Shown one piece after another: positions 7,851-42,972 of a stretch of 64,000 bases of DNA. The DNA comes from an uncultured virus (IMG/VR IMGVR_UViG_3300036766_002285) (taxonomy: Duplodnaviria > Heunggongvirae > Uroviricota > Caudoviricetes), in IMG/VR virus record IMGVR_UViG_3300036766_002285; one strand, given 5' to 3'. The notes beneath the pieces were generated by a model. It was not told the DNA's origin. It saw only the letters and a program-made list of their open reading frames with translations, and searched no databases. A program made the translations under genes and the position numbers. Every line of letters starts with the position of its first letter. Position 1 is the first letter of the stretch.

Positions 7851-8429
7851 ATGAGCAGTACTATGGATAGACAAGATGTAATAGACGCAGTAGCAAACGG
7901 TTCTGGCCTCGTAAATGCAGACTTAACTAACATAAATTTAACTGGGATCTGTTTAGCTAATGTGAATTTATCAGGAGCGAAATTGTCCTATAAGGATTTG
8001 CGTGGTATAGATTTGTCCTGTGCAAACCTTGAGGGTGCTGATTTATCAGACGCCAAATTGTGGGTGTCCATGTTAAACAAAGCAATCTTTAAAAACGCCG
8101 ATCTTACTCGTGCAGAGTTTACTTTTGCCAAAATGTGTCAAACTAATCTAGAAGGCGCCACATTATCAGGCGCAGATCTCAAAGGAGCTAACCTAAGTGG
8201 TGCAAATCTTAGATGTGCTAATATAACTAGAATAACTATAACAGGATGCGACCTTAGTGACGCTGATCTAACTGGTGCCAATATGTCTGGAAAAGATCAG
8301 TATAGCATTTCTTTAGAAGGAGTTCTCTTGTGTAGAGCAAATCTTACAAATTGCTACACCGAAGGCACCGATCTTACTAAAGCAGACTTAACTGGTACCA
8401 TCATGCCAAACGGATCCGTCCATGAATAA
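7851..8429 (+). CDS. Pentapeptide-repeat protein (array 1)
   Basis: Rfr repeats, tail TIMPNGSVHE, SD AAGGAG. Confidence 0.9.
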   Translation: MSSTMDRQDVIDAVANGSGLVNADLTNINLTGICLANVNLSGAKLSYKDLRGIDLSCANLEGADLSDAKLWVSMLNKAIFKNADLTRAEFTFAKMCQTNLEGATLSGADLKGANLSGANLRCANITRITITGCDLSDADLTGANMSGKDQYSISLEGVLLCRANLTNCYTEGTDLTKADLTGTIMPNGSVHE

Positions 8430-8446
8430 TTACAATTGGTATTTGT

Positions 8447-9106
8447 ATGGCTCGTAAACTTATCCGTACTCAAGTCCTAAAAATTATAGAAGCTCAAGGT
8501 ACTTTAGCTGAAACTAACCTATCCGGAGTTGATTTACACGGTATTAACTTCTCTGGCACCAGTTTGGCTTTTGCTAATTTATTAGAAGCCAACCTGGCAG
8601 GTGCTGATCTTTCTCACTGTGATTTAGTAAAAGCAACCCTTTATGAAGCAATTTTGACGAGGGCTGACCTGTCACACTCGAACTTATCTGGCGCTATGCT
8701 GGCCTATATAACCGGTGATAAAGCTAACTTTTTTGAAGCAAACCTAACCAAAACACACATGGCCGGTGCTGACTGCCGCGGTGCTAACTTAACTGGAATG
8801 ACGGCTTGTGGTTATGGCGTAGGTGGTGCAACCACAGAAGATGGATATGTGTTCGCTCATCACGCAGATTTTTCGTACGCCGATCTGTCTCGTGCAGATT
8901 TTAGAGGCGCCGATTTTAGAGGAGCACATTTTATTAGCGCTAATCTAATTAACGCCGATCTAGAAAATGCAGATTTAACAGACGTAAAGTTTACAAATGC
9001 CGATTTAAGTTGCGCAAATTTGCTTAAAGCTCAGGTAAAAATGAAACAACTAAAAACCGCCGTCCTGACCAGGACTATTATGCCAGACGGTAGTATCCAT
9101 GTATAA
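8447..9106 (+). CDS. Pentapeptide-repeat protein (array 1)
   Basis: Rfr repeats, loop ACGYGVGGATTEDGY, tail TIMPDGSIHV. Confidence 0.9.
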   Translation: MARKLIRTQVLKIIEAQGTLAETNLSGVDLHGINFSGTSLAFANLLEANLAGADLSHCDLVKATLYEAILTRADLSHSNLSGAMLAYITGDKANFFEANLTKTHMAGADCRGANLTGMTACGYGVGGATTEDGYVFAHHADFSYADLSRADFRGADFRGAHFISANLINADLENADLTDVKFTNADLSCANLLKAQVKMKQLKTAVLTRTIMPDGSIHV

Positions 9107-9121
9107 TAGAGGAATTACATT

Positions 9122-9784
9122 ATGACTCAATCACTCACAAGACCCCAAGTGCTAGAAGCTATAGAAGCTAAACAGAGCTTAGCAGATATTTTGTTAAACA
9201 ATGCAGATTTACATGACATAGATTTTAAAGGTATCAGCTTAGCTTCTGCCAGTCTCGTGGGGGCCAATTTACAAAATGTTAACATGTCGCATTGTGATCT
9301 AACTAGAATTAATTTCAGAGAGGCTAATCTCACTTGTGCAGATCTATCCTACACCCTTCTAGCCGGAAGCAGATTCTTTAACGTACAGGCCGAGGAAATA
9401 AATTTGGCTGGCGCCAATCTTACTAAAACAGACATTTTTTCCGGCATTTGGCACCATGCAAATCTATCAAATATCATTATGTGCGGACCTTCTATTAAAA
9501 AATATCCTGATCTTCAGTACAATACTTCTTGCTCTCATGCAGATTTAAAAGAAGCTAATATGATTAATGCTGATATGAGAAATGTGTATTTTGGCGGCGT
9601 AAATTTCAGTGAAGCTAATTTAACAAAAAGTGATTTACAGGGATCCGATTTCACGTATGCATGTTTCAATAACACAATACTTGAAGATGCGAACCTGTTT
9701 GAAACAAAAATAGATTTAGCACAACTAAAAACCGCTGTTCTGACCAGAACTATTATGCCAGACGGTAGTATTCATGGCTCGTAA
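9122..9784 (+). CDS. Pentapeptide-repeat protein (array 1)
   Basis: Rfr repeats, tail TIMPDGSIHGS. Confidence 0.9.
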   Translation: MTQSLTRPQVLEAIEAKQSLADILLNNADLHDIDFKGISLASASLVGANLQNVNMSHCDLTRINFREANLTCADLSYTLLAGSRFFNVQAEEINLAGANLTKTDIFSGIWHHANLSNIIMCGPSIKKYPDLQYNTSCSHADLKEANMINADMRNVYFGGVNFSEANLTKSDLQGSDFTYACFNNTILEDANLFETKIDLAQLKTAVLTRTIMPDGSIHGS

Positions 9785-10418
9785 ACTTATCCGTACTCAA
9801 GTCCTAAAAATTATAGAAGCTCAAGGTACTTTAGCTAATACTGATTTAAGAGATATTGATTTGCATGGAATTGATTTTAATGAAATTAGTTTATCTGAAG
9901 CCTACTTCTATCATGCGGATCTCAGCTATGCCAATCTCTCCAATTGCGATTTAACTAGAGCTGTATTAAGTTTTGTTACGGCAAACGACGCCAATTTCTC
10001 GAACAGCTCTCTAGCTGGAACGTCTATATCCAATATCACGGCCGAAAACGCCAATTTCTCTTCCGCCAATTTAACTAGAAGTTTTACATCAGATAGTTCT
10101 CTTCAATGTGCGAATTTTAGTTATGCTAATTTAGCAGGTACTGGGTTTGAGGATTTTTATACGAGTTTTTTTCACGTAGATTTAGCAGGTAGCAATTTTA
10201 CCTGCGCTGATATGCGTGGTATATTTATACAGAAAACGAATTTGGCAGATGCTAACCTAAGTAGTGCTGATTTGAGCCACTCTCAACTAGAAGACGTCTT
10301 GTTTGCTGGAGCAAATCTTTACAACTGTGATTTTACGGCCGCTACTTTAACAGACACCTATTTCGACGATGTCGTATTGACCGGAACTATCATGCCAGAT
10401 GGCGTACTACATGTCTAG
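9774..10418 (+). CDS. Pentapeptide-repeat protein (array 1)
   Basis: Rfr repeats; first 63 nt identical to the 8447 gene. Confidence 0.9.
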   Translation: MARKLIRTQVLKIIEAQGTLANTDLRDIDLHGIDFNEISLSEAYFYHADLSYANLSNCDLTRAVLSFVTANDANFSNSSLAGTSISNITAENANFSSANLTRSFTSDSSLQCANFSYANLAGTGFEDFYTSFFHVDLAGSNFTCADMRGIFIQKTNLADANLSSADLSHSQLEDVLFAGANLYNCDFTAATLTDTYFDDVVLTGTIMPDGVLHV

Positions 10419-11115
10419 ATCTAGGATTCTTCATTACCCCGTTCTTACACGCCAAGAAGTGCAAGAAGTGGCTAAAATTAAAGGAAGTCTCGCTGAAACT
10501 AATTTAGGTGCCCTCGATCTTAGTAATATAGATTTCTCTGGTATGGATTTTTCTGATGCCATATTGAGCAGAGCTAACCTTCGAGGCGCTAACTTATCCG
10601 GCTGTGATCTAACTAGAACTTTTCTATGGTCAACAGTAGCAACGGGTACCAATTTCGAAAAATGTTCTCTATCAGGTTCCCACATGGATGAGATACAAGC
10701 CATGGGTGCGAATTTTCATGAAGCGAATTTAACCAGAGCTTCTTTACAAAAAGCTGATCTTTCCGGCGCTGATTTTTCACTTTCTAATATATCCGGGTCT
10801 GGAGATTTTTCTGCAATATTTACTAGGGCAAACCTGGCCAATGCTAATTTTAGAGCAGCCAATATGTATGGTGCAACTCTTAATGATACTATATTGACTG
10901 GCGCTGACTTAAGTTTCGCTGATTTAAGATTCGCTGATTTACAAGGCGCCAGGCTCAGACATGCTAATCTAGAAAATACTAATCTACTGGGGGCAAAATT
11001 TACAAATGCAAATCTTGGAGATGCAAATCTAGCAGGTGCCAAAATTGACTTGAGCCAACTTCGTTGGGCTGCCTTGATTGGTACTATTATGCCAGACGGA
11101 ACAATCCATTCATAA
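10411..11115 (+). CDS. Pentapeptide-repeat protein (array 1)
   Basis: Rfr repeats; start placed at the ATG overlapping the upstream tail. Confidence 0.9.
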   Translation: MSRSRILHYPVLTRQEVQEVAKIKGSLAETNLGALDLSNIDFSGMDFSDAILSRANLRGANLSGCDLTRTFLWSTVATGTNFEKCSLSGSHMDEIQAMGANFHEANLTRASLQKADLSGADFSLSNISGSGDFSAIFTRANLANANFRAANMYGATLNDTILTGADLSFADLRFADLQGARLRHANLENTNLLGAKFTNANLGDANLAGAKIDLSQLRWAALIGTIMPDGTIHS

Positions 11116-11184
11116 AACTATATCTTGTTTGACCGTATAGACAGCGCGCTTATAGTTTATTATTACAAAAAGGGAGATATTAAT

Positions 11185-11841
11185 ATGAGTAAAGCAAAAT
11201 TAACCAGAAATGATGTTATTAGACATACAAAAGACCATAATAGTCTACAAGGCTCAGATCTTGCAGACCTGGATCTCCACGAACTGGATTTTTTCGCAAT
11301 GAATTTAAAAGACACTAATCTATACGGTGCTAACCTAAGAGGAGCCCGCCTTTGTTGGGCGGAGCTGGACCGTGCTGATTTACGGGTGGCAAATCTTGTT
11401 GGTGCAAATTTAAATGAGGCTAGAATGGAAAATGTAAAACTATGTAAAACTAATCTAACAGACGCTAGGCTAGATGAGGCCCGTCTTCAAGATGCTGATT
11501 TAACCAGAGCAATTCTAACGGGTGCAAACTTATCAAGTGCATGGTTGATGCGCGCGGATCTAACAGCTGCTGATCTAACTAGAGCTTATATGTCGGGGGC
11601 TAATTTAGAGGAAGCTATCCTCATAGACGCTAAGCTAGCTGGATTCGGGGATCATGAAGGTACCAACACAGAGATGTGGCAGACTAATCTAAGGCGCGCA
11701 GATTTAACCAGAGCTGACATGCGTGGAGTTAACTTAAGCAATGCTGATTTAACAGGTGCTATTGTAAAAGATACCAACTTTGAAAATGTTATCTGGTTCC
11801 AAACCACGATGCCTGACGGGACTAAGCGTTCCAATAATTAA
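11185..11841 (+). CDS. Pentapeptide-repeat protein (array 1)
   Basis: Rfr repeats; SD AGGGAG; promoter TTGACC-N16-TATAGT at 11129-11156. Confidence 0.9.
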   Translation: MSKAKLTRNDVIRHTKDHNSLQGSDLADLDLHELDFFAMNLKDTNLYGANLRGARLCWAELDRADLRVANLVGANLNEARMENVKLCKTNLTDARLDEARLQDADLTRAILTGANLSSAWLMRADLTAADLTRAYMSGANLEEAILIDAKLAGFGDHEGTNTEMWQTNLRRADLTRADMRGVNLSNADLTGAIVKDTNFENVIWFQTTMPDGTKRSNN

Positions 11842-14827: not shown

Positions 14828-14916
14828 CTAGCTAGAGTAGATACTACCATCAGGCATAGTAGTGTCCTCGAAATAACAGTTTTTAAGAAGTGTGTTTTTA
14901 ACATAATTCTTAGCAC
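14828..14916 (-). pseudogene. 3' fragment of the PRP gene starting at 16999, split by IS607
   Basis: Translates (G)AKNYVKNTLLKNCYFEDTTMPDGSIYSS*; rejoins in frame to ...ADLK at 16534. Confidence 0.85.
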
Positions 14917-16533
14917 CGTTCCTTTTGAGTGTCGTTTAGTGACACTCTAGGAGTTCTCCCTTGCGAAAGAACAGTTCTTGTTTTAGGCCACCATTGCTGG
15001 TTGCTTCAAGATTGACGCTTCATCGGCCACAACATTTATATCTAATAAAGATACTTTAGTTTTACGTAGGCCTTCACGTCCAGACTCCGGACTACTCCCG
15101 GAGTTTACTATTATATTGCTTGACTGCCTAGGTAACCCTAGTTTAGCCAAATTCACTGCTGCATTAAGATCTCTATTCAAGACATTAGGGCAAACAGTGC
15201 ATTTATATATACGCTCTTGGCGTGGTAGTTTGGCTTTCACTGATCCACACTTTGAACATGTTTTACTAGAGGGATAGAACCGGTCAGCTATAACTAAAGT
15301 TGAGCCATACCAGAGCGTCTTATATTTAAGTTGCCTGTAAAATTCTCCAAGACCGGCATCTGCCATCTGTTTTCCAAGCAGACCACTTTGTATTATCCCT
15401 GCGACATATAAGCCTTCAATAACTATTGTGTCAAAGTTTTTGGCAATATTCGTTGTAGTTTTGTGGTTCAGATCCAGACGACAATTAGCAGGTTTTGCAT
15501 GAATACGTCTGTTCCTTTTTTGTTCTTTAATATATCGATTTGATGCTTTAGTACCAGGTATTTTATTATGGCTTTGTTTGCGTGACAAGTTCTTGTTTGA
15601 ACGTCTAAGCAGTTTAGCCTGTTTATCTGTATTTCGTGGATTTTCAGTTCTAAAAAGCTCTTCACCAGTTGGGCTAGCTCCGATATGCAAAGTATTTATA
15701 CCCACATCAATACCTATAATGCGTTTGGCTTTGCGTGGTGTAGGTATATCACGATCTACTTCTACAGTAAAAGACACAAACCATCTGTTTTGTTTATGAG
15801 AAAGAGTCGCAGCTAGAATGCGGGCGCTACAGTTTTCGATACGCCGAGTTAGCTTGCGGGTACTCTCGTAGGTGCGGATTTGACCTATAACTGGAAGAAG
15901 TATATGGTGACGATCTACAGTTACCCCGATGTTACCTGTGGTGAACCGAACACTCTCATGTTGGCCGCGCTTATGATATTTAGGAAATCCGACCGGTTTA
16001 CCTTTCCTGTTAAAGAATCTATATGGTTTGATACCCCTAAAGATAACCGTTTAGTGCCATCTGAGTAGGCTTCCTTAGAGTTTTCTCTCCACCAGGGGGC
16101 AACCAAATCTTTCTTTGTGTTCCAAATCTTTCTTAAAGCATAATGTGAAGTCGGAAAATATGGGGTCAGTGCACTTTTCGCCACACCGGAACTAATCTCA
16201 GCTTTTCTTAAATCATTGGTAGCTTTCATACAGCCAAGAAGATAATTGTAAACATACCTGGAAGCTCCCACATGAGAGTTACAAGCCCGCGCTTGAGTTG
16301 GAGTAGGGTCAAGTGCGAACTTGTAAGCCTGATGGATTATGCTCATAAAGGTTTAATTTGTTCAGGCATGTCTCGTACAAGATCATCATTCCGTTCATCA
16401 CGCAACCTACCTGCCGCTGTAGTCAATGTTCCACCTACTTCACTAGTCCAATCTGGATGTTCATACATCTAGTATCGGCACTAGATGCCCTTTGATGGCA
16501 CTCGTTGCCGCTGAACCTTATACTGCTCGCAAT
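14917..16533 (-). mobile_element. Degenerate IS607-family element (tnpA remnant + frameshifted tnpB)
   Basis: Right junction GGAACGG, GG at both junctions, no target duplication; tnpA remnant motifs RASSAD, TSEVGGTL, DDLVRDM at ~16343-16500; removal restores the PRP frame. Confidence 0.85.
14983..16346 (-). pseudogene. tnpB: IS607 TnpB, frameshifted near 16000
   Basis: N-terminus QAYKFALDPT...WWRENSKEAY; second frame KGKPVGFPKY...; RuvC GIDVG, IVIEGL, NRDLNAA and zinc finger intact. Confidence 0.9.
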
Positions 16534-16999
16534 CCTTTAGATCGGCTTTTGTTAGATCTGTGTCTTCAAAATATGTATTACTAAGATTAGCTCCTCTCAA
16601 ATTTGCTTTACAAAAAGTAACCTTAGTAGCGACGCCATTAGATAAGTCAGCATATTGTAGATTCGTACCACTCAAGTCAGCACCTTCAAGGTCACAGCTA
16701 AGAATAGCGCCCGAAAGATTTGCTCCAGTAATCTCCGCGTCCGTAAGCTCCGCATCTTCTAAGTTAGCATCTCTAAGATCAGCACCACACAGCGTAGCGC
16801 ACCCCAACCACGCATCTGTTAGGTTAGCGCCTCGCAAATTGGCACCCCGCATATCAGCTCCAAAAAAATCTGCCCCAACTAGGATCATACCGCTTAGATC
16901 TATATAACTTAAATTTTTATTGGAAAGATTCAGATGTTCATCCTTATTAGCAGCAATTTGTTTTTCAACTTGCTTACGAGTATAATGTTTAGGTGCCAT
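16534..16999 (-). pseudogene. Pentapeptide-repeat protein, 5' part interrupted by IS607
   Basis: Rfr repeats stop abruptly at the insertion; ORF reads into the IS to 16481. Confidence 0.85.
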
Positions 17000-18260: not shown

Positions 18261-18917
18261 TTACTTACTAATTGTGCCGTCTGGCATAATTGTATTTTCT
18301 AGTAAAGCTCGCGCAACGTCGCAATTTACCATTGAGGCTTGAGATAAATTTGTGCGACATAGTATGGTTTTATCTAATTCTGCATTATTAAAATTTGCAC
18401 CAATAGCAAGAGCATCTGTTAAGTTTGTGTTAGCTAAACAAGCAAAGTTGAAACCAACACCGCGCAAATCAGCCGAAATGAAAGTTGCACCCAGCAAATC
18501 AGCGTAAAATAACTCCGTTCTGTAAATTTCACCATAACCAGCCATATTGACCGCATTTAGGTTAGCATTTTGCAGCCTGGCTCTTATTATGTTAGCTCTT
18601 GTTAGATTGGCCTTATAAAAATTACACCCCCCAGCTTCTGTCATAGAAAGATCTGCGCCCGCCATCGCGCTGTTCGAAAAATCAACCCCAACCAGGTTTG
18701 CCGCATAGAATATTGTCCTAGTTAGATCACAGTTTGATAAATTAGCAAAAGTTAAATTTGCCTCAAATAAATTTGCTTCAGATAAATTCATATTAGATAA
18801 ATCACAGCCACAAAGATCAACCCCCCGCATATTAGCACAAGCCAAGCTTCCTCCAGCCATAACAATGGCTAAAACGTCAGATTTAGAGAGTCCGGGAGTT
18901 ATTATTTGGTTAGTCAT
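18261..18917 (-). CDS. Pentapeptide-repeat protein (array 2)
   Basis: Rfr repeats, tail TIMPDGTISK. Confidence 0.9.
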   Translation of the reverse strand: MTNQIITPGLSKSDVLAIVMAGGSLACANMRGVDLCGCDLSNMNLSEANLFEANLTFANLSNCDLTRTIFYAANLVGVDFSNSAMAGADLSMTEAGGCNFYKANLTRANIIRARLQNANLNAVNMAGYGEIYRTELFYADLLGATFISADLRGVGFNFACLANTNLTDALAIGANFNNAELDKTILCRTNLSQASMVNCDVARALLENTIMPDGTISK

Positions 18918-19560
18918 GCACGCTTCCGTCGAACATGATAGTTCCAGTCAAATTTGCAAAACTAAAATTGGCACCGGAGATATTGCAGTTTGTAAGGTTT
19001 GCTTTACTTAAATTGGCATATGCAAAGTCTGCATTGCTTAAGTCCGCGCCCTCAAGGTCAGTTCCAGTTAAGTTTGCTTCTTGCAGGGATGCTCTCGCAA
19101 AACACACTTTTCGCATATCGGCTCTACTTAGGTCAGCTTTTATTAGTTTGATATGAGTTCCGCCCCTAGCTAGATTTCTGGTATCTAGCATGATTGCACC
19201 AATCAAGTTGCAGTAACTAAAGTTAGCCCCAGTGAGTTTTGTTTTACTCAAATTCGCCTCAAATAAATTTGCCCCCGCAAGATCTGTATAAAACATACGT
19301 GCTCCAGTTAAATTTGAATGAGACAGATCGGCATTTTTTAGTCTAGAATTGTTCAATTCCACTCTGGTCAAGTCACACCCTTGCATATTTACCCCCTCTA
19401 AATCAGCACCTAACAACTCAGCCCCTGCTAAACTTAACGAAGCAAAATCTACACCAGCTAATTTAGCAAAACGTAAGTCATAACCAGCCAAACTTTGACG
19501 TTTGTCTATCATCGCTAAAATATCTTCCCGTTCTATTGCTTCTTTAGTTAATTTAATCAC
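18910..19560 (-). CDS. Pentapeptide-repeat protein (array 2)
   Basis: Rfr repeats; probable GTG start inside the upstream tail. Confidence 0.9.
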   Translation of the reverse strand: MIKLTKEAIEREDILAMIDKRQSLAGYDLRFAKLAGVDFASLSLAGAELLGADLEGVNMQGCDLTRVELNNSRLKNADLSHSNLTGARMFYTDLAGANLFEANLSKTKLTGANFSYCNLIGAIMLDTRNLARGGTHIKLIKADLSRADMRKVCFARASLQEANLTGTDLEGADLSNADFAYANLSKANLTNCNISGANFSFANLTGTIMFDGSVHD

Positions 19561-21482: not shown

Positions 21483-22130
21483 CTATCCACGTATACTCCC
21501 GTCTGGCATTATAGTATTAGAAAATATAGCATCATCAAAATTACCATTGTGTACTGCTCTAAATAAACTTGTCCCATGCATGTTTGCAAAACTGAACAAA
21601 GTCCCCTCTATATATGCATGTTGTAAATTTGCAAAAGTTAAATTTGAAAAAGACAAGTTAGAGCGAGTTAGAGCCACTCCACGCATGTCAGCATCACAAA
21701 AATTAGCATTCTTTAGATTGCATCCAGATAAATCTGTGCTTTGTGGGTAACAAACACCTGCCATATTTGCATCACAAAAATTAGCATTCTCTAGATCAGA
21801 CCCCCATAAACTAGCCTTGGTCAAGTTAGCACATGAAAAATTTGCGCCACAGCCGACCATACTTGGAAGTATCGCACCGCTCAGCATTGTGTTTGACAAA
21901 TTAGCATTTATAATCACAGCCCCCGCCAAACAAATTCGAGTCAAATCACAATAAGAAAAATCAGCGCAAGTCAAGTTGGCCTCTGTCAGGTCAGTTCTAT
22001 ATAAGGTTAAGCCAGTAAAATTTACGTAGGCTAAGTCAACCCTAACCATATTTAATTCAGCCAAACTCTCACCTCTGCCTATTAATGTCAGCACGTTTTT
22101 GCGGCTAAGAGTAGATGAATTTTTAATCAT
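21483..22130 (-). CDS. Pentapeptide-repeat protein (array 2)
   Basis: Rfr repeats; start inside the upstream tail. Confidence 0.9.
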   Translation of the reverse strand: MIKNSSTLSRKNVLTLIGRGESLAELNMVRVDLAYVNFTGLTLYRTDLTEANLTCADFSYCDLTRICLAGAVIINANLSNTMLSGAILPSMVGCGANFSCANLTKASLWGSDLENANFCDANMAGVCYPQSTDLSGCNLKNANFCDADMRGVALTRSNLSFSNLTFANLQHAYIEGTLFSFANMHGTSLFRAVHNGNFDDAIFSNTIMPDGSIRG

Positions 22131-22851
22131 GTATACTCCCATCTGGCATGATTGCGTTTGTTAGGATGCAATTTGTTAAAATAGCGCCTTTCAGCTCGGC
22201 TCCGAATAAATCAGCCGCCGTCAAGTCAGCTGAACTCAAGTCAGCATTTGTGAAGTTAGCTTCACTCAAGTCAGTTCCACGCAAAATCGTATTTTGTAAT
22301 ATAGCGTCCTCAAAATAAGCATTCCCTAGTTTTGCAGAGTTAAAATTAGCGAAACTAAGATTTGCACCCTTGAAATTTGCATCGTAACAATGTGTCCCCC
22401 GCATATCTGAGTTTTGTAAATTGGCGCAAGTAAAATCGGCTTCGTCTAAGAAAGTAATGAATTTAAAATCATCTTCCTCGTTCGCCGAAGGCGTCTCAAT
22501 TCCGCCCATCATTACTCCCTCCAGATTGGCATAGCTAAAGTTTGCATAGCGCAAGTCCGCCCTGGTTAAATTAGCATAACTAAAATTCGCACGCAAAGCC
22601 TTTATATGTGTCATAAATGCTCCAGCTAAAGCACATTGCGTCAAATCAGCATCCACAAGAATTGCTCCCCGCAAATCAGCTTTAGTTAAATCACAATTGG
22701 AGAGGTTAGCACGTGATAGATCAGCAGAAGGTAATTCAGCACAAGAGAAATCTATATGAGAAAGGTCTATACCGCACAACACAGCCCCAGCCAGGCTGCC
22801 AGATGCTGCAAGTACAGTTAGTACTTTTTCTCGACTATACGTTTCAGCCAT
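22123..22851 (-). CDS. Pentapeptide-repeat protein (first gene of array 2)
   Basis: Rfr repeats, long acidic loop GGIETPSANEEDDFKF, SD AAGGAG. Confidence 0.9.
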   Translation of the reverse strand: MAETYSREKVLTVLAASGSLAGAVLCGIDLSHIDFSCAELPSADLSRANLSNCDLTKADLRGAILVDADLTQCALAGAFMTHIKALRANFSYANLTRADLRYANFSYANLEGVMMGGIETPSANEEDDFKFITFLDEADFTCANLQNSDMRGTHCYDANFKGANLSFANFNSAKLGNAYFEDAILQNTILRGTDLSEANFTNADLSSADLTAADLFGAELKGAILTNCILTNAIMPDGSIHD

Positions 22852-25050: not shown

Positions 25051-25072
25051 CATGTTTTGTAGTCACAGCTAG

Positions 25073-26941: not shown

Positions 26942-27057
26942 AACATTTTAAAAATTAAACTTCCTAATACCTATATATTTATTCGCAGCTACAGTATATA
27001 GCCTACTGTAAGCACCATTAGCGGAGAAACCATGTATAATAAAAAGAAGACCGTTAT

Positions 27058-27714
27058 ATGATTCATAGACTTTCCCGTGCTCGGGTTCTAGAAATTATAG
27101 CAAGTAAAGGGACTCTGTTTGAAGCTGACCTAGGAGGCCTTGATTTGCATGGAATTAATTTTGCGGGCATAAGCTTAGCCGAAGCAAATTTAAACGATAC
27201 CAATCTAACCACCGCCAATTTGTCCAATTGTGACCTAGCCAAAGCAAGCTTTTGTGGCGCACTTATGAAAGACGCTAACCTATCTTATTCAAATTTGGCT
27301 GGAGCATGTATGTCAGGGATAGACGGCGAGAGAGCTAACTTTTTTGAAGCAAATTTAACCAAAGCAGATTTGGATGAGGCCAACTTAAGCAGCGCCATCT
27401 TAACAGGAGTGGTCGCTGCTGGTTTGGGGATAGCGCCCCACACTGATTTGGAGTATGTACTAGTATGTGGTACAGATCTCAGCGATGCCAATCTAAGTCG
27501 TGCGGATTTTAGAGGTGCAGATTTTTTTGGAGCTGATTTTAGTGGCGCAGCTCTGGTAAATACAGATCTAGAAAATACTAATTTAGAAAACACAGACTTC
27601 TCTGATGCTAATTTGGGCGGAGCAAATCTATTCAAATCGTATATGAAAAACACAAATCTTAATGGAGTTCTTCTGGTAGGCGCTACCATGCCTGATGGGA
27701 CCAAACATGAATAA
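27058..27714 (+). CDS. Pentapeptide-repeat protein (array 3)
   Basis: Rfr repeats, tail ATMPDGTKHE. Confidence 0.9.
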   Translation: MIHRLSRARVLEIIASKGTLFEADLGGLDLHGINFAGISLAEANLNDTNLTTANLSNCDLAKASFCGALMKDANLSYSNLAGACMSGIDGERANFFEANLTKADLDEANLSSAILTGVVAAGLGIAPHTDLEYVLVCGTDLSDANLSRADFRGADFFGADFSGAALVNTDLENTNLENTDFSDANLGGANLFKSYMKNTNLNGVLLVGATMPDGTKHE

Positions 27715-28357
27715 TAAGACTCCAAAACTTACTCGCCAGAAAGTGCTAGCAATAATAGCAGCCAGAGGTACTCTAGCTGAGACCAATTTACGCGGAGTTG
27801 CTTTACATGGAATTAACTTTTCTGGCACTAGTTTAGCTGAAGCTGACCTAACAAAGGCCAACTTGACAGGTGCGAATTTGTCCAATTGTGATCTAGCCAA
27901 AGCAAATTTCAAAGACGCACTCCTAGAAGGTGCTGATCTATCACGCTCGAACCTGGCTGGAGCTAGTCTGTACAATACAAAAAGTAAAAATGCTAACTTT
28001 TTCAAAGCAAATTTAACTCGCACATTTATGTACGGTTGCGATCTTAGGCATGCTAATTTAGTTGAAGTAACAGCCTGCGGCTTTGGTGCAGATAACCACG
28101 TGTTGATTGGTTATGTAGATCTAAGGTCGGCCAATTTAACGCAAGCAGATTTTAGAGGCGCAGATTTTGAAAAGTCTAATTTTTCGCAAGCAAATTTGAC
28201 AAACACAGATTTAGACAACGCTAACCTAAAAGATGCAAAGTTTACAAGTGCTAACTTGAGTGGAGCTAATCTATTTAAAGCCGCAGTTAAAATGAGGCAA
28301 TTAGAAACCGCTATACTTTTCGGCACCATCATGCCTGCCGGAGAAATTCATGAATAA
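27707..28357 (+). CDS. Pentapeptide-repeat protein (array 3)
   Basis: Rfr repeats; start inside the upstream tail. Confidence 0.9.
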   Translation: MNNKTPKLTRQKVLAIIAARGTLAETNLRGVALHGINFSGTSLAEADLTKANLTGANLSNCDLAKANFKDALLEGADLSRSNLAGASLYNTKSKNANFFKANLTRTFMYGCDLRHANLVEVTACGFGADNHVLIGYVDLRSANLTQADFRGADFEKSNFSQANLTNTDLDNANLKDAKFTSANLSGANLFKAAVKMRQLETAILFGTIMPAGEIHE

Positions 28358-28374
28358 GTACAATCGGTGTTTCT

Positions 28375-29043
28375 ATGTCTAGTAAACTAACTCGTATTAA
28401 AGTCTTAAAAATTATAGCAAGCAAAGGCACCCTATTTGAAGCAGAACTAGAAGGGCTTGATTTACATGGAATTAATTTTCTTGGTATCAGTTTATCTGGG
28501 GCCAGTTTACAAGATGCTGACCTGTCGCGTGCTAATCTAACCAGTTGCGATTTAGTCAGAGCTTGTCTTCATGCAACAAATTTAGAAGGTGCTGACTTAT
28601 CTCACTCAAATTTGGCTGGAGCTAATATGTCAGGTATACAAGGTAAGAATGCTAACTTCGTGTGCGCAAATCTAACCAGAGCAGATATAGACGAAGCTAA
28701 CCTAAGTGGTGCGAACCTAAAAGGAGTAGTCGCCGCAGGTTTTGGGGTAGCAGGCACAAGCAGTCAAGCTGAGTTCGTGTATATTAGTCATACAGATCTA
28801 TCTCGCGCTGATCTAAGTCATGCAGATTTTAGAGGCGCCTATTTTAGAGGCACAAATTTTACCCAGGCAAATCTAACAAACACTGACCTAGAAAATGCTA
28901 ATTTAACAAGGATAAATTTTACAAATGCTAATTTGCAAGGCGCAAACCTGTATAATTCCGAGGTGGAAAAGGCAAACCTTAGCAGAGCTATCCTGAAGGG
29001 CACTATTATGCCAGACGGCAGCGTCACAAGCAGCAGCAAATGA
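28375..29043 (+). CDS. Pentapeptide-repeat protein (array 3)
   Basis: Rfr repeats; close paralog of the 27058 gene. Confidence 0.9.
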   Translation: MSSKLTRIKVLKIIASKGTLFEAELEGLDLHGINFLGISLSGASLQDADLSRANLTSCDLVRACLHATNLEGADLSHSNLAGANMSGIQGKNANFVCANLTRADIDEANLSGANLKGVVAAGFGVAGTSSQAEFVYISHTDLSRADLSHADFRGAYFRGTNFTQANLTNTDLENANLTRINFTNANLQGANLYNSEVEKANLSRAILKGTIMPDGSVTSSSK

Positions 29044-29084
29044 TTAGTCTAAAGGTGTCACTCTAATGGTAATCATAATATTTA

Positions 29085-29744
29085 ATGGCGGTATTGTTAA
29101 TGGTTAAACAAAAATCTACTGTAAAAGAAGTCATAGAGATTATAAATAATAGAGGCAGTTTACAGAATATTGACTTATCCTATCTAGATCTATCCAACAT
29201 TGATTTTCTCGGTATAGGTTTATCCAAAATTGATCTGAGTCATGTTATTTTAAAGAGCTCAAATCTCTCTCATTGTGATTTAACCGAATTTTATGCCTCC
29301 GGTGTAGATTTATCTTCTACCAATATTTCTAGTGGCGCACTTGCCGGAGCCGCTATATATAAGTCCAAAGCCTGTGGCGCTAATTTTTTCGAAGCAAATT
29401 TAACCAAGTCATCCATACAAGAGTCTGATTTCAGTAATACAAATTTCACCGGAGCAATCATGGCAGGTTTTGGTCTTAAGTACGCCACATATTTAACAAA
29501 AGTAAATTTTAAACAAGCTACATTTGTTCGTGCAGACCTTCGAGGGGCATGCTTTAAAGATGTAAATTTTGAGAGAGCAGATCTAGAAGGAGCCGACCTA
29601 GAAGGAGCAATTTTTATAGGCTGTGATTTTAATGGTACAATATTTAAAAAGGCAAACCTCACCCACTGCAGCATAGAACTAACACTACTTAAAAATGCAG
29701 ATCTCACAGACTGCACCATGCCAGATGGCACCATCCATGCATAG
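29085..29744 (+). CDS. Pentapeptide-repeat protein (array 3)
   Basis: Rfr repeats, tail CTMPDGTIHA. Confidence 0.9.
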   Translation: MAVLLMVKQKSTVKEVIEIINNRGSLQNIDLSYLDLSNIDFLGIGLSKIDLSHVILKSSNLSHCDLTEFYASGVDLSSTNISSGALAGAAIYKSKACGANFFEANLTKSSIQESDFSNTNFTGAIMAGFGLKYATYLTKVNFKQATFVRADLRGACFKDVNFERADLEGADLEGAIFIGCDFNGTIFKKANLTHCSIELTLLKNADLTDCTMPDGTIHA

Positions 29745-29753
29745 TTTACTTGT

Positions 29754-30401
29754 GTGGCTAATATGATTACTAACCTTTGCCGTAGAGACGTCGAAGCCAA
29801 GATAGCACTAGGCACGAGTTTAGCTGAAACGGACCTAAGAAATTTAGATCTTCAAAGTATAGATTTCACAGGTTTATCTATTAATGACGCTCACCTAGGC
29901 GAAACAAACCTGTCTTCAGCCAATCTATCCAACTGCGATCTAACCAGGTCGTATCTTGGTCGGACTGACCTTACCTGTGCTAATTTATCTTACTCAAATT
30001 TGGCTGGCGCTGAACTATACTGGATAAATGCGGCCGGTGCCGATTTTAGTTTTGCAAATTTAACCAGAACAACCATTCATGAATCTAATTTTAGTAAAGT
30101 CATTATGACTAATGTAGTTGTAGCTGGTTATAAAAAATACGGCGCACTTATACTTTATACTGATTTTACCGGTGCTATTTTAACTAATTCTGATCTGCAA
30201 GGCTCCACACTTGAGGGCTCGATTTTTGACGATGCTGATTTGCGCTGTTGTAATTTACAAGGCACTGATTTAAGCGGAGTAAGTTTTCAAAACACAATAC
30301 TTAAAGGCGCTAGTTTATTTAAATCAGCTTGTAAACTTTCACAGCTTGCAAGCTGTGATCTGACACAAACAATTATGCCAGATGGAACAATACATGTATA
30401 A
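29754..30401 (+). CDS. Pentapeptide-repeat protein (array 3)
   Basis: Rfr repeats, tail TIMPDGTIHV; start uncertain (29754 or 29763). Confidence 0.9.
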   Translation: MANMITNLCRRDVEAKIALGTSLAETDLRNLDLQSIDFTGLSINDAHLGETNLSSANLSNCDLTRSYLGRTDLTCANLSYSNLAGAELYWINAAGADFSFANLTRTTIHESNFSKVIMTNVVVAGYKKYGALILYTDFTGAILTNSDLQGSTLEGSIFDDADLRCCNLQGTDLSGVSFQNTILKGASLFKSACKLSQLASCDLTQTIMPDGTIHV

Positions 30402-30437
30402 GCACAGATCAAACACAAACAAACCAAGGAGCATATA

Positions 30438-30884
30438 ATGATTGAAATAACACCCCCAAATACATACCAGTATTTCGCTCGCTCAGTTTTTCTTGCGGGC
30501 GGAATTTCTAACTGCCCGAACTGGCAAAAAGATTTAATAGCTATGCTTGAGTCTACTAATTTAGGCATCTTCAATCCTCGCCAAGATAATTATACAAACA
30601 ATCAAGCAGCAGCAACCACGCAAATACAATGGGAGCATACACATTTACGCATGGCTACTGCCATCTCTTTTTGGTTTCCTAGTCAAACATTATGCCCGAT
30701 TACTTTATATGAACTTGGTTATTGGTCGAGTTTGCAAAAACCGATATTTATAGGGGTGCATCCAGATTTCGAACGAAAACTGGACGTATCTATTCAGACT
30801 TCGTTAGTTGTGCCTGAAATTAAAATTGTAGATTCTCTAGAAGCTCTAGCCGGGCAACTAATCAAATATGATAGTAGCAAATAA
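30438..30884 (+). CDS. Nucleoside 2-deoxyribosyltransferase-like protein
   Basis: SVFLAGGI, NWQ, FNPR, QIQWE, ISFWF, CPITLYELG. Confidence 0.8.
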   Translation: MIEITPPNTYQYFARSVFLAGGISNCPNWQKDLIAMLESTNLGIFNPRQDNYTNNQAAATTQIQWEHTHLRMATAISFWFPSQTLCPITLYELGYWSSLQKPIFIGVHPDFERKLDVSIQTSLVVPEIKIVDSLEALAGQLIKYDSSK

Positions 30885-30964
30885 CAACCATTCATTTATA
30901 GAAATTCCTAGCGCCAACGGTATAATCCATGTTACTCGCTAGGCACAAAAGGAGATAAATATAC

Positions 30965-31570
30965 CTGAAAAATCTATCCCGCCCACAAATTCGAGAAATT
31001 ATAGAAAGTCGCGGTACCTTAGCAGACGTCAACTTATATGGAAGAGATCTGCATGGAATTGACTTTTCTGGGATCTGTCTTTCTGGGGCTGGTTTGCAGG
31101 GGGCAAATATAACGGGGTCTACTTTTATTGGCTGTGATCTAACTAAAATAAATCTACACGGTGTTGATGCTAGTAATATTAATTTTTCCAATAGCTCTCT
31201 GTCAGGTGCGTGGATGAATAGGTCAAATTTTAAAGGTGCGATTCTTCACAAAGCTAATTTAACAAGGGCTACGATCTGGTCAGCAGATTTTGAAGGCGCC
31301 GACCTAAGTGAAACTAATATGGCAGGTTTCGGGGACATGTTCATGGATTTTTCGTACACTAATTTAACAAAAGCTAATCTTAAAAATGCAGATCTTAGGG
31401 GAGTTTATTTAGAAGGCGCCATGCTAACGGATGCGGATTTAACCAATTGTGATCTGAGGGGTGCTGATCTTACTGAAGCGAATCTTAAAGGCGCAACTGT
31501 AAATCTCGCCCAACTTAAAAATGCTCATCTGTTTAGAACTATAATGCCAGATGGGAGTACCCATGGATAA
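30965..31570 (+). CDS. Pentapeptide-repeat protein (array 4) with probable non-canonical start
   Basis: Family N-cap LSRPQIREIIESRGTLA is encoded upstream of the tracked TTG; only ATA (30959) or CTG (30965) lie between SD AAGGAG/in-frame TAA and the cap. Confidence 0.8.
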   Translation: MKNLSRPQIREIIESRGTLADVNLYGRDLHGIDFSGICLSGAGLQGANITGSTFIGCDLTKINLHGVDASNINFSNSSLSGAWMNRSNFKGAILHKANLTRATIWSADFEGADLSETNMAGFGDMFMDFSYTNLTKANLKNADLRGVYLEGAMLTDADLTNCDLRGADLTEANLKGATVNLAQLKNAHLFRTIMPDGSTHG

Positions 31571-32213
31571 CACCCCACTAAACAGAGATGATGTACTCGC
31601 TGTAGTTGCTTCCGGCAAAAGTCTAGCTAATACAGATATGCGCGGTGCCCTGCTAAATGATATTGATTTTTTTGGTATATCACTGTCCGGATCTTATTTA
31701 CAGGGCGCCTGGTTACGAGGAGCCAATATGTCTAACTGCGATCTGACGCGCGCTAGCTTGTACAATACCGATCTAAGAGATACCAACCTGACTCGTGCCA
31801 ACTTATCTGGAGCAGACCTATCAAGGGCGGTGGCTACAGGAGCTACTTTTTTTGAAGCTAATCTTACTCGTGCCACCCTACGCAATACAAATCTTAGTTG
31901 CGCTGATTTGGCAGGTATAATCGCTTCCGGCGATGGTGAAAAATATATGACAATATTTTCATACGCAGACTTCACAGACGCTAATTTAAGTCGCGCTGAC
32001 CTGAGAGGAGCTAATTTTCAAGGAGCAAAACTCGAAAGGACTAATTTAGAAAATGCTGATCTAGAAAATACCGATCTGTCGGCTGCTGATATGACCGGCT
32101 GTGACTTAAGTGGAGCAAATTTACTTAGAGCCTCAGTGCACTTACCCGGGCTCACCTTAGCGCTAGCTACTTTAACCAATACTACCATGCCAGACGGTAG
32201 TATTCATGAGTAA
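31563..32213 (+). CDS. Pentapeptide-repeat protein (array 4)
   Basis: Rfr repeats; start inside the upstream tail after GGGAG. Confidence 0.9.
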   Translation: MDNTPLNRDDVLAVVASGKSLANTDMRGALLNDIDFFGISLSGSYLQGAWLRGANMSNCDLTRASLYNTDLRDTNLTRANLSGADLSRAVATGATFFEANLTRATLRNTNLSCADLAGIIASGDGEKYMTIFSYADFTDANLSRADLRGANFQGAKLERTNLENADLENTDLSAADMTGCDLSGANLLRASVHLPGLTLALATLTNTTMPDGSIHE

Positions 32214-32913
32214 ACTTCAACCAGATGCTCTAAATAAATTTAGCAGAAAAACAGTTATTGCCAGGATTGCCGCTCATAAAAATTTAGTCGGCCTGGATCT
32301 AAGCGCCCTTGATCTGCATGGAATTGACTTTGCTAAAAGTAGTCTAAGCTATGCAGATCTGAGCAATGCCAACTTAGAAGGCGCTGACTTGTCCAACTGC
32401 GATTTAACGAAAGCAGACTTATCTTCAGCAGATTTAACTTGTACTAATTTGGCTTATTGTCTACTGGCAGGTGCCTTTCTAGAAGGAGCAACCTTAAGAA
32501 AAGCTAATTTATATAAAGCCAATCTAAGTAGAGCTGATTTATCAGCCGCTGATTTAATCGAAACTGACTTACGTTGTGCTAATTTATCTGGAACCTATGA
32601 TTTTTTTACAGATCTTTGGGACGCCAAGCTTACTTCGGCTGATCTTAGCGGTGCTGATTGTCGTAACGCAAGATTTTATGGAGCCAGGCTGCACCATGTA
32701 AATTTTACACAAGCCGACCTCTCTCATGCTTCTTTTAAGAAAGCGGATTGCTTAAAAGCCGATTTTACGGGCGCGATATTATTTGAGGCGAATTTGACTG
32801 ATGCATGTTTACAGAAGGCTATTTTCAAAAATGTAGATCTGCAAAATACCATGTTGCCTAGCGGCGAATATCCAGTAAACTCAAGCCACATTAGGGCATT
32901 TTGTGACTATTAA
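32206..32913 (+). CDS. Pentapeptide-repeat protein (array 4)
   Basis: Rfr repeats; start inside the upstream tail; variant tail TMLPSG. Confidence 0.9.
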   Translation: MSKLQPDALNKFSRKTVIARIAAHKNLVGLDLSALDLHGIDFAKSSLSYADLSNANLEGADLSNCDLTKADLSSADLTCTNLAYCLLAGAFLEGATLRKANLYKANLSRADLSAADLIETDLRCANLSGTYDFFTDLWDAKLTSADLSGADCRNARFYGARLHHVNFTQADLSHASFKKADCLKADFTGAILFEANLTDACLQKAIFKNVDLQNTMLPSGEYPVNSSHIRAFCDY

Positions 32914-42971: not shown

Positions 42972-42972
42972 T

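Follow-up and report, generated by a model that had tools for sequence, protein, structure and literature searches.

Pentapeptide-repeat genes in the window

The window, meaning the whole 64,000-nucleotide stretch of DNA analysed here, contains 33 genes matching the pentapeptide-repeat family PF00805, 23 inside 7851-32913 and 10 outside, which together occupy 21,426 of the 64,000 bases, about one third. Within 7851-32913 the set comprised the 23 open reading frames that show a 5-residue period and encode 140 aa or more, and all 23 match PF00805 at 101.9-191.1 bits (cut-off 20.2). Over the 33 window genes the scores are 64.2-251.4 bits against the same 20.2, and all 33 show what defines the superfamily, a contiguous run of eight or more A(D/N)LXX repeats that scores over the Pfam gathering threshold. 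The products are acidic (pI 4.26-5.93) in 30 of the 33 copies, and inspection of the 33 sequences revealed no visible N-terminal hydrophobic signal. We aligned the 24 copies that bear an N-terminal cap (alignment A1) and took rows 1-20 as the core family. The family profile matches 201,353 representatives at E <=0.001; no close relatives were found, and none of the 24 copies (0/24) matched any of 5027 defence-system models. Many orphan genes surround the arrays, whose neighbours also include DNA enzymes and homing nucleases. The features, with the basis of assignment after the semicolon, are as follows.

4470..4943, - strand: short solitary pentapeptide-repeat gene, basic (pI 9.42); PF00805
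7851..8429, + strand: divergent cap-bearing gene, first of array 1, 192 aa, no break (gap 10 at the aligned site); PF00805 139.7 bits, A1 row 22
8447..9106, + strand: core paralog, +7 loop (CGYGVGGATTEDGY); PF00805, A1, spacing
9122..9784, + strand: core paralog, +7 loop (CGPSIKKYPDLQY); PF00805, A1, spacing
9774..10418, + strand: core paralog, +2 bulge; PF00805, A1, spacing
10399..11115, + strand: core paralog, site length unchanged, C-half with three extra units; start likely a later ATG
11125..11841, + strand: divergent copy with the cap, breaking at AGFGDHEGTNT some 26 units in; probable start 11185
14829..16999, - strand: pentapeptide-repeat gene interrupted by an IS200/IS605-type TnpB element; PF00805 117.2 bits
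about 14829-14900, - strand: C-terminal remnant of the split gene, ending ...TTMPDGSIYSS; frame translation
15921-16346 and 14983-15777: TnpB in two ORFs within the split gene; PF12323, PF01385, PF07282
16481-16999, - strand: N-terminal part of the split gene; PF00805
17508..18242, - strand: core paralog, +1 bulge, 11 extra residues following the cap; PF00805, A1, spacing
18261..18917, - strand: core paralog, +1 bulge, second AlphaFold model; PF00805, spacing, pLDDT 97.1
18910..19572, - strand: core paralog, length unchanged at the site; PF00805, A1, spacing
19553..20176, - strand: core paralog, length unchanged at the site, short C-half; PF00805, A1, spacing
20127..20816, - strand: core paralog, +1 bulge; PF00805, A1, spacing
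20797..21468, - strand: core paralog, +1 bulge; PF00805, A1, spacing
21483..22142, - strand: core paralog, +1 bulge; PF00805, A1, spacing
22123..22851, - strand: core paralog opening array 2, +10 loop (GGIETPSANEEDDFKF); PF00805, A1, spacing
27058..27714, + strand: core paralog opening array 3, +6 loop; PF00805, A1, spacing
27695..28357, + strand: core paralog, +1 bulge, the sole basic core copy (pI 8.76); PF00805, spacing
28375..29043, + strand: core paralog, +7 loop, the reference copy; AlphaFold pLDDT 94.3, VIA/Foldseek
29085..29744, + strand: core paralog, +1 bulge; PF00805, A1, spacing
29754..30401, + strand: core paralog, length unchanged at the site (AGYKKYG); PF00805, A1, spacing
30438..30884, + strand: gene of another kind within array 3, nucleoside 2-deoxyribosyltransferase-like; PF15891 75.4 bits
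30959..31570, + strand: core paralog, length unchanged at the site; PF00805, A1
31551..32213, + strand: core paralog, +1 bulge; PF00805, A1, spacing
32206..32913, + strand: core paralog, length unchanged, divergent tail (MLPSGEY...), last of array 3; PF00805, A1, spacing
40780..44841, + strand: fourth array, five pentapeptide-repeat genes (40780-41406, 41387-42016, 41949-42971, 43260-43715, 43744-44841); cap and AGFG site in 41949-42971 only (A1 row 24)
45535..46035, - strand: pentapeptide-repeat gene with a different, non-helical N-terminal segment; PF00805
49538..50068, - strand: pentapeptide-repeat gene with a different N-terminal segment and an MPDGS tail; PF00805
54804..55295, - strand: short pentapeptide-repeat gene with a different N-terminal segment; PF00805
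55478..56146, - strand: divergent cap-bearing copy outside the interval; PF00805 149.4 bits, A1 row 23

The copies are old and intact. Core copies are 33-57% identical, their median pairwise nucleotide identity is 0.49 (190 pairs), the family tree is star-like with a median tip length of 1.21, and the core frames are open in 20/20. The full-length frame of the 30959..31570 gene begins with ATA, 4 nt after AAGGAG; its first ATG/GTG/TTG lies at 31094, within the solenoid. The 8447..9106 gene shares its 5' 45 nt with the 9774 gene, identically, and a 3' tract, at 93%, with the 9122 gene.

Of 21 same-strand junctions, 12 overlap when longest-ORF coordinates are used, and at five junctions the sequence GGGAG lies inside the DG(S) codons of the preceding gene, 5 nt before the next ATG. 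Antigenic variation from silent cassettes, in which one expression site is fed by promoterless partial copies, was rejected, since the copies are full-length and co-oriented, have their own starts and often overlap the previous stop. As regards a diversity-generating retroelement or other targeted hypermutation, the Pfam matches of 61 scanned ORFs include no reverse-transcriptase domain. One contig in a single sequencing run, which may be the source sample itself, spans 17347-33000 with zero differences, contigs being apt to drop rare variants.

Core framework and break site

The first-pass annotation described more than 20 paralogs with a common cap and framework, each broken at a fixed register by one hypervariable loop. 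The framework is well borne out by the 20 core copies of A1, which have in common a cap helix at the N terminus followed by exactly 20 repeat units, the break, about 14 further units and a TIMPDGSIH tail. Cap residues R/K7 (19/20), V/I10 (20/20) and L20 (20/20) are conserved, and little or no variation occurs at C58-D59-L60, G82 and N99-L100 (n=20). The register also holds: the unit before the break lies 100 residues after L20 in 18/20, 60 after CDL in 20/20 and 20 after ANL in 20/20. What does not hold is a break in every copy. The centre-to-centre distance across the site is 15, which means no break, in 6/20, 16 in eight, 17 in one, 21 in one, 22 in three and 25 in one. A true extruded loop (+6 to +10 residues) thus occurs in 5/20, a bulge of 1-2 residues in 9/20 and an unchanged length in 6/20; in the tree, the five long-loop copies form one clade of three and two single genes. 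AGYGEIYRT, AGYKKYG and AGTGFEDFY, all quoted as loops, are bulges of 0-2 residues, and AGFGDHEGTNT does not belong to the common site, because gene 11125-11841 breaks after about 26 units and not 20.

With an insertion of at least six residues in only 5/20 copies, the loop does not behave as the CDR-like hypervariable element that had been proposed. Nor is it more variable than other exposed positions, the outcome named beforehand as telling against the proposal: loop columns occupied in at least 17/20 copies have a mean entropy of 2.74 bits, against 2.96 bits for outward positions of the variable face described below (Mann-Whitney p=0.32) and 2.07 bits for all outward positions of the N-half (p=0.05). 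Aromatic residues account for 30/147 of the residues in the loop columns. The base of the break is conserved, with GxG, Y/F-x-T and, below it, AD(F/M)RG.

AlphaFold models of two core copies, 28375..29043 (pLDDT 94.3) and 18261..18917 (pLDDT 97.1), are confident solenoids with a cap helix, and the strand marks, every 5 residues in both, predict the four repeats per coil of a quadrilateral beta-helix that is right-handed. In the reference copy the cap helix comprises residues 7-15 and the loop residues 123-134 (window 28741-28776); its +7 loop is predicted with low confidence (mean pLDDT 59 over residues 121-130). The +1 copy is modelled at pLDDT 97 through the site, with a helical turn at 129-132 and no low-confidence segment. 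Compared with solved pentapeptide-repeat proteins, the predicted model of the reference copy gives VIA Z of 20-31.

Constant and variable faces

Face-specific variation is a stronger signal than the loop. In the N-half of the core alignment, outward entropy by face is 1.18, 2.96, 2.38 and 1.77 bits (Kruskal p=1.7e-6), so that a conserved face (about 1.2 bits) adjoins a near-random one (about 3.0 bits). The C-half shows the opposite pattern (2.35, 1.43, 2.80 and 2.67 bits; p=0.006). The one variable solenoid face that had been postulated is therefore present, at 2.96 bits against 1.18, 2.38 and 1.77, and the break sits on it. It is rich in aromatics, with 42/297 against 31/900 over the remaining three (Fisher p=1.1e-9), and its net charge per copy ranges from -6 to +1. 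At conserved outward codons pN is 0.12-0.31 while pS is 0.40-0.77, which indicates that they are kept by selection and not by recent gene conversion; synonymous sites are saturated (pS 0.37-1.15).

The earlier observation is real yet overstated, and is partly confirmed; the reading drawn from it, a scaffold whose loop and one variable face set specificity, is partly supported. The variable face, for its part, may be variable just through lack of constraint. On such an account function would lie in the conserved surfaces only, for example in contacting one common partner or in joining solenoids side by side or end to end into a larger structure, with the variable face and loop exposed and drifting and the copies serving as dosage or interchangeable blocks. 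We regard this as unlikely, though it deserves weight: the outward ladders are under purifying selection, the loop is minimal or absent in 15/20 copies, the star-like tree gives no sign of recent diversification bursts, and HetL, discussed below, self-associates in two-hybrid assays (PMC7476756, in part). Drift of an exposed surface, however, is not expected to give a four-fold aromatic enrichment, 20 old copies (33-57% identity), all open, are hard to explain via dosage alone, and the conserved base of the break looks like a built feature.

Relation to HetL and possible roles

The nearest natural structure is HetL (All3740 of Nostoc sp. PCC 7120, PDB 3DU1), which matches the reference copy from cap to tail (VIA Z 31.3, rmsd 1.3 A, 205 residues) at 28% identity. 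The HetL model NF047416 is the top-scoring NCBIfam model for 24/24 copies, below its equivalog cut-off of 260 bits (reference copy 114.5 bits; lowest E-value over the 24 copies 1e-42). Our models predict the HetL architecture of N-cap helix, about ten coils, mid-helix loop and C-terminal MPDGSIH hairpin; HetL ends in AIMPDGSIHD, and HetL and the family share both the ...MPDGSIH(D/E) tail and a short loop whose mid-helix position aligns. What sets the family apart is that more than 20 copies stand in tandem, that one surface is constant and another variable, and that the DNA is of other than cyanobacterial origin. HetL acts by binding HetR and counteracting PatS; HetR is a cyanobacterial protein, and neither HetR nor PatS would be expected in such DNA; the Pfam matches of the window include no HetR-like gene.

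Described for HetL are a capping helix at the N terminus, a mid-helix loop of six residues and a second loop of nine residues (PMC8145042, in part); our family consensus lacks the second. HetL binds the HetR hood through a ladder on one face (E84ADLT, K104ASLC, Q124ADLR, Y149ADLR and others), D151A abolishes HetR binding, the interface derives from docking and single mutants, and HetL also associates with itself (two-hybrid; passages of PMC7476756). These HetR-binding rungs align to the variable face of the family (units centred at 85 and 105, the break unit and the AD(F/M)RG unit) in a mapping that is one HMM alignment of a repeat protein, HetL having an extra 5-residue unit upstream.

Our preferred reading, held tentatively and with somewhat less than even confidence, is of a lineage-specific family of HetL-like solenoids, co-expressed and cytoplasmic, that are binding or protective proteins of diversified specificity. 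The solenoids, of about 220 aa and with no visible signal peptide, would be produced jointly from polycistronic operons with partial translational coupling, and each is predicted to be a rigid, square beta-helix whose roughly ten coils run from the cap helix to the TIMPDGSIH tail. Purifying selection would preserve the core and the outward residues of one face, with part of a neighbouring face, in the N-half, and, on the adjacent face, the C-half ladder of AD(F/M)RG, ADLEN, ANLFK and TIMPD. In its N-terminal rungs (coils 2-5), rich in Tyr/Phe/Trp, this adjacent face would be nearly free to vary, with variation extending to the sixth rung, the site of the bulge or loop. By analogy with the aligned HetL face, this half-constant, half-variable face may be a protein-binding surface. 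The partners may then differ from copy to copy, or be variants within a single partner class, and the copies may work as HetL or Qnr/MfpA do, by protecting or competing through binding. The remaining conserved surface could be a shared contact, for self-association or a common partner. The arrays look like an inherited set of putative protein binders.

The first-pass annotation had instead looked to loop B of Qnr, an analogy weaker than that with HetL, which has both the top NCBIfam score and the closest structure (Z 31.3 vs 22.3). On this line the copies would be DNA mimics like Qnr, MfpA or AlbG, protecting a DNA enzyme (gyrase or another topoisomerase, a nuclease, a polymerase) from a poison or blocking DNA-targeting defence enzymes, with the loop corresponding to loop B. 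The fold is the same (VIA Z 22.3 for QnrB1, 21.5 for AlbG and 21.2 for MfpA), the copies at about 220 aa are of Qnr-like size, those proteins are mostly acidic as are 30/33 copies (pI 4.26-5.93), and DNA enzymes and homing nucleases lie nearby. Loops are extruded in QnrB1 (loop A Y46-G53, loop B S102-S113) and AlbG (T87-A99), and gyrase protection needs the Qnr loops (PMC8145042, in part). We nevertheless consider DNA mimicry improbable. The models have an N-terminal cap helix, and neither predicts a helix after the last coil, where Qnr has the C-terminal helix of its head-to-head dimer, and they show a monomer about half the length of the Qnr dimer; there is one break and not two; and HetL is much closer structurally. 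The curated cut-offs are missed widely, that for Qnr (NF033086, 240 bits) at 62.2 bits for the reference copy (best E-value 4.6e-23 among 24 copies) and that for MfpA (NF000349, 360 bits) at 43.1 bits. Because the net charge of the variable face spans -6 to +1, the copies have no single common DNA-like surface. That the copies are effectors, secreted or injected by a host-associated organism or giant mobile element and comparable to the pentapeptide domains found in PipB2, SopA and NleL, is very improbable, for although NCBIfam PipB/PipB2 models match 24/24 copies below cut-off and orphan genes abound around the arrays, the similarity is of repeats only (82 bits vs a 274 cut-off, 72.5 vs 354), the 33 sequences lack a visible hydrophobic N-terminal signal, and the Pfam matches of the window include no secretion-system gene.

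To our knowledge, the pentapeptide-repeat genes of a cyanobacterium lie scattered and are heterogeneous, and do not form tandem arrays that are translationally coupled and built on one framework with features at a fixed register. They do resemble the present set in having many genes per genome (more than 30 in Nostoc PCC 7120; PMC8145042, in part) and an MPDG tail. The top structural and sequence matches are engineered pentapeptide solenoids with loop insertions (PDB 4YC5, 4YFO, 5DNS, 5DQA and others; Z 31.4-31.6, E 3.4e-73), by their entry titles synthetic consensus proteins on a scaffold that tolerates such insertions. As an analogy only, lamprey variable lymphocyte receptors also combine a rigid repeat scaffold with one variable face and a variable protruding insert; theirs is a leucine-rich repeat fold, assembled somatically, whereas every copy here is a complete germline gene and all are apparently co-transcribed. 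It is conceivable, if quite unlikely, that the arrays are an inherited, simultaneously expressed binder repertoire for multi-target immunity or counter-defence, with scaffold and anchoring surface constant and a diversified paratope of 4-5 rungs of one face plus an optional loop, borne by a very unusual actinobacterium-related cell, a giant phage or a mobile element. If so, repeat-based antigen receptors would have a counterpart encoded in a prokaryotic germline, by which many different proteins of opponents would be neutralised.

We know of only a handful of pentapeptide-repeat proteins with a known mechanism, such as Qnr/MfpA/AlbG and HetL. More than 20 old copies of one HetL-like scaffold, side by side, are a natural experiment in which selection marks the fixed and the changeable surfaces; the resulting map gives testable predictions on where such solenoids bind their partners, and the copies provide a ready set of natural variants with which structure, binding and scaffold engineering can be studied. 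If their targets differ, the family would be a new case of specificity diversification on a beta-solenoid, and the mode of action of HetL would reach beyond cyanobacteria.

Gene arrays and the junctions between copies

All 23 periodic ORFs of the interval 7851-32913 belong to the pentapeptide-repeat family PF00805 (101.9-191.1 bits, against a threshold of 20.2), and these pentapeptide-repeat protein (PRP) genes occupy 15,013 of its 25,063 bases. Ten further PRP genes lie elsewhere in the window (G+C content 40%), giving 33 genes on 21,426 of its 64,000 bases. Five of these are singletons, and the others form four arrays.

Arrays, flanking nuclease-like genes and two further genes of the window
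7851-11841, plus strand: array of 6 PRP genes
16481-22851, minus strand: array of 9 PRP genes
27058-32913, plus strand: array of 8 PRP genes, interrupted by one nucleoside-deoxyribosyltransferase-like gene
40780-44841, plus strand: array of 5 PRP genes
5110-6594, plus strand: HNH endonuclease-like gene (phrog_1314), flanking the arrays
26180-26941, plus strand: GmrSD_C-like nuclease gene, flanking the arrays
33089-33682, plus strand: endonuclease VII-like gene (phrog_1035), flanking the arrays
22923-24893, minus strand: LigA, NAD-dependent DNA ligase
61291-61659: WhiB gene

Neighbouring genes overlap at 12 of 21 same-strand junctions (longest-ORF coordinates). In five of the junctions that we inspected, GGGAG lies within the Asp-Gly(-Ser) codons of the preceding gene, 5 nt 5' of the next ATG. 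That ATG falls within the codon after Ser-Ile/Val of the preceding tail, whose codons read MPDGS, I/V, H/Y, any residue and stop; examples of this superposition of tail and start are found upstream of 20146, 20804, 22130, 42009 and 55235. Since both GGGAG and ATG sit inside tail codons, the tail would also supply the next gene with its ribosome-binding site and start, a layout that suggests polycistronic, translationally coupled expression of the arrays. A promoter consensus scan of the window was uninformative, because its 44 sites are at chance level (41.9 expected). Terminator-like sites number 23, where 13.9 are expected; one weak site lies directly past 32913.

The full-length paralog 30959-31570 (plus strand) has no ATG, GTG or TTG at the expected start; its frame opens with ATA, 4 nt past AAGGAG, reflecting either a near-cognate start or loss of the start codon. 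Gene 14829-16999 (minus strand) is cut in two by a TnpB (IS200/IS605 OrfB) element, TnpB itself being present as two ORFs, and a second TnpB-like ORF lies at 62077-62901 (minus strand). A second type of PRP gene (41387-42016, 45535-46035, 49538-50068 and 54804-55295) lacks the helix cap and begins with a segment of 40-70 residues sharing an (F/Y)IDR(K/D)GN...W-like motif.

Framework, register and break site

Alignment A1 comprises 24 cap-bearing copies and contains no conserved stretch of 7-10 columns. We left out four divergent rows (11185-11841, 7851-8429, 55478-56146 and 42009-42971); the remaining rows, 1-20, make up the core family. Here the framework motifs reported in the first-pass annotation are genuine: in the cap, R/K7 is kept in 19 copies and V/I10 and L20 in all 20; no copy deviates at C58-D59-L60, G82 or N99-L100; 19 copies have G122, and the M-P-D-G tail is kept in 18-20 depending on position. 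The same annotation placed a break in the repeat period at a fixed register, and the register is indeed exact: the unit preceding the break lies 60 residues from CDL and 20 residues from ANL in all 20 copies, and 100 residues (20 units, five coils) from L20 in 18.

The break itself is optional. Every copy had been thought to interrupt the period with a loop, but if a centre-to-centre distance of 15 across the site is taken as an unbroken solenoid, six copies are unbroken and only five of the 20 extrude a loop.

Centre-to-centre distance across the break site in the 20 core copies
Distance 15 (no break): 6 copies
Distance 16: 8 copies
Distance 17: 1 copy
Distance 21: 1 copy
Distance 22: 3 copies
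Distance 25: 1 copy

Among loop-bearing copies (named by gene start), 8447, 27058 and 28375 form one clade in the tree, and 9122 and 22123 fall separately. The AlphaFold model of our reference copy (gene 28375-29043, +7 at the site) has a mean pLDDT of 94.3, with 59 over residues 121-130; that of a +1 copy (18261-18917) averages 97.1 and stays at 97 through the site, one strand giving way there to a one-turn helix (129-132). Conservation marks the base of the site: G122, G124 (14/20), Y or F (12/20) and then T (11/20), with AD(F/M)RG one coil lower.

The PRP family is old. Amino-acid identity to the reference copy is 33-57%, and the median pairwise nucleotide identity among core copies is 0.49 (190 pairs). 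The tree has a star-like shape, with good support for 5 of 21 inner branches and a median tip length of 1.21, and its few supported pairs join genes from different arrays. Judged from nucleotide identity, two short tracts suggest local conversion between genes at their cap and tail ends: 8447-8565 and 9774-9892, at the 5' end, are 100% identical over 45 nt, and 9046-9101 (gene 8447) and 9721-9776 (gene 9122), at the 3' end, are 93% identical. Both involve gene 8447, and the neighbouring paralogs that share them are otherwise 53% identical.

Relatives and replicon

The framework was found in no other protein or locus in searches of proteins, species genomes, viral contigs and metagenome contigs. 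A word-based search with a whole copy returned generic pentapeptide proteins only, at most 47% identical among the 120 matches listed, and one with the cap region gave 46 matches from 86 candidates; both missed the window's own PRPs, although the window's LigA was returned by its own search. Ten sequences inspected (seven from the cap-region search and three from the whole-copy search) lack the framework. In motif scans based on alignment A2, restricted to two peptide patterns, species genomes yielded 34 loci, viral contigs 11 and metagenome contigs 48, the best full-length match being about 41%. An exhaustive HMMER search was dominated by giant proteins with many repeats (708-7692 aa) and was uninformative on close relatives, and the ESM Atlas yielded generic pentapeptide clusters only.

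The window's LigA is found on a 616,293-base contig in the protein collection. Its best relatives are metagenomic proteins (61% identity), the named ones being from Kitasatospora and Streptomyces (46-50%). We found a LigA match at E<=1e-60 in 383 of 401 sampled Actinomycetota genomes (14 of the 401 are unpublished, none among the eight best); the best seven matches, at 48-49%, all come from genomes of 7.9-9.9 Mb with two LigA matches, and most others listed are at 36-42%. No phage record matches 44000-64000, and among the phage records listed, identity to LigA does not exceed 38.6%. Viral-contig scans with LigA and the SbcC-like gene found no relative, and the FtsH scan gave generic matches only (37-46%).

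An ordinary cellular chromosome is disfavoured by several features. The IF3 gene infC (region 34745-36375) stands alone, with no rpmI- or rplT-like ORF following it; 15 of 38 scanned non-PRP ORFs have no Pfam match (E<=0.001); and the window carries an HNH endonuclease, an endonuclease VII, an intein in SufB and two TnpB elements. The replicon may belong to an unusual cell with links to Actinomycetota, or be a giant phage or mobile element with such links.

Past infC, some 1.1 kb contains no convincing ORF. At 36375-40619 (minus strand), a single ORF of 1414 aa fuses CysRS (catalytic residues 469-766, DALR 794-847) to a GluRS/GlnRS-type catalytic domain (950-1248) with its own anticodon-binding domain; its first ~460 residues have no Pfam match. 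The SufB/D-type gene at 50113-52602 (minus strand) is split by an intein with a LAGLIDADG domain, and the local G+C content is 0.51, compared with about 0.40 elsewhere; directly upstream, on the same strand, is a SufA-like Fe-S biosynthesis gene (52581-52907). The FtsH-like AAA and M41 protease at 47505-49136 (plus strand) has only 543 aa, and its AAA domain begins at residue 86, leaving scant room for the usual membrane anchor. A single tRNA-Ile (anticodon TAT) is present at 1611-1685 (minus strand).

Conservation by face and likeness to HetL

With 20 residues to a coil, the face of a residue follows from its position modulo 20; face 0 is the one on which the first post-cap unit lies. The inward residues are conserved (i, 0.91 bits; i-2, 1.45 bits). 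Outward positions of the N-terminal half differ in entropy between faces (Kruskal p=1.7e-6; face 0 vs face 1, p=2.3e-5).

Mean outward entropy of the N-terminal half by face
Face 0 (rungs ISLSG, CDLTR, SNLAG, ANLTR, VNMAG): 1.18 bits
Face 1 (units centred at 25-105): 2.96 bits
Face 2: 2.38 bits
Face 3: 1.77 bits

On face 1 the four units centred at 45-105 reach 3.08-3.16 bits each. The pattern is reversed in the C-terminal half, where face 1 is the most conserved (1.43 bits; ADMRG 0.55, ADLEN 1.62, ANLFK 2.12) and faces 0, 2 and 3 have 2.35, 2.80 and 2.67 bits (p=0.006). The break coincides with the face-1 unit of coil 6, where the variable and constant halves of this face meet. Conserved outward codons have pN of 0.12-0.31 while pS at the same codons is 0.40-0.77, so this conservation is selective and not due to recent homogenisation; by site class (Nei-Gojobori), pS is saturated (0.37-1.15) in six of the closest pairs. 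Phe, Tyr and Trp are enriched four-fold on the variable face (42/297 vs 31/900, p=1.1e-9) and make up 30 of 147 residues in loop columns; net charge is -6 to +1 on the variable face and -1 to +2 on face 0. In one run of the probable source sample, using contigs only, no alternative letters were seen over 17347-33000, and differences at 16433-16505 trace to other contigs, which match paralogs or the end of the IS.

The loop had been singled out as the hypervariable element. However, the ten loop columns occupied in at least 17 core copies have an entropy of 2.74 bits, a value that does not exceed the one for the variable face (2.96, p=0.32) and is just marginally higher than that of all outward N-half positions (2.07, p=0.05).

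A sequence search of solved structures placed synthetic consensus solenoids first and HetL, a solenoid protein of Nostoc, next (E 3.8e-48); the HetL chain ends in AIMPDGSIHD. HetL also ranked first in Foldseek, and the structure comparison points to a HetL-like fold for the predicted copies.

VIA-align comparison with known structures
HetL: Z 31.3, rmsd 1.3 A, 205 aligned residues
QnrB1: Z 22.3, rmsd 2.6 A, 183 aligned residues
AlbG: Z 21.5, rmsd 2.7 A, 189 aligned residues
MfpA: Z 21.2, rmsd 1.9 A, 167 aligned residues

Scores fell short of the curated cut-offs for HetL (114.5 vs 260 bits), Qnr (62.2 vs 240) and MfpA (43.1 vs 360), and none of the 24 cap-bearing copies matched defence-system models.

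The review PMC8145042 describes HetL as a protein of ten coils with a capping helix of ten residues at its N-terminus, a C-terminal two-stranded sheet and two loops, of six residues near the middle and nine residues further on; for QnrB1 it gives loop A as Y46-G53 and loop B as S102-S113, gyrase activity being abolished without the larger loop. In the HMM alignment, it is the six-residue HetL loop that aligns with the break site; by position, the loop seen here is homologous to that one and not to Qnr loop B, with which it was first compared. According to PMC7476756, the interface of HetL with its partner HetR, derived from docking and point mutants, is mostly one face ladder (E84ADLT, K104ASLC, Q124ADLR, Y149ADLR, R169ANFG, Y197ANLE), and D151A abolishes binding. 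We indexed these residues from the HMM alignment, correcting for 20 extra N-terminal residues in the deposited chain. In this single alignment of a repeat protein, in which HetL carries an extra five-residue unit upstream of the binding rungs, the rungs align with the variable units centred at 85 and 105, the break unit and AD(F/M)RG, and D151 with the near-invariant Asp (19/20) of AD(F/M)RG. Because the binding rungs align there, the variable face noted in the first-pass annotation would correspond to the reported HetL binding face.

The first-pass idea of a constant framework carrying a diversified recognition surface holds up, with the emphasis shifted from the loop chiefly to the solenoid. 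Recognition would fall mainly to a solenoid face, and the loop is a minor, occasional addition, placed like that of HetL. The half-variable face would be a putative binding surface with copy-specific targets, the other, conserved surface may provide a shared contact, and the copies of each array would be co-expressed.
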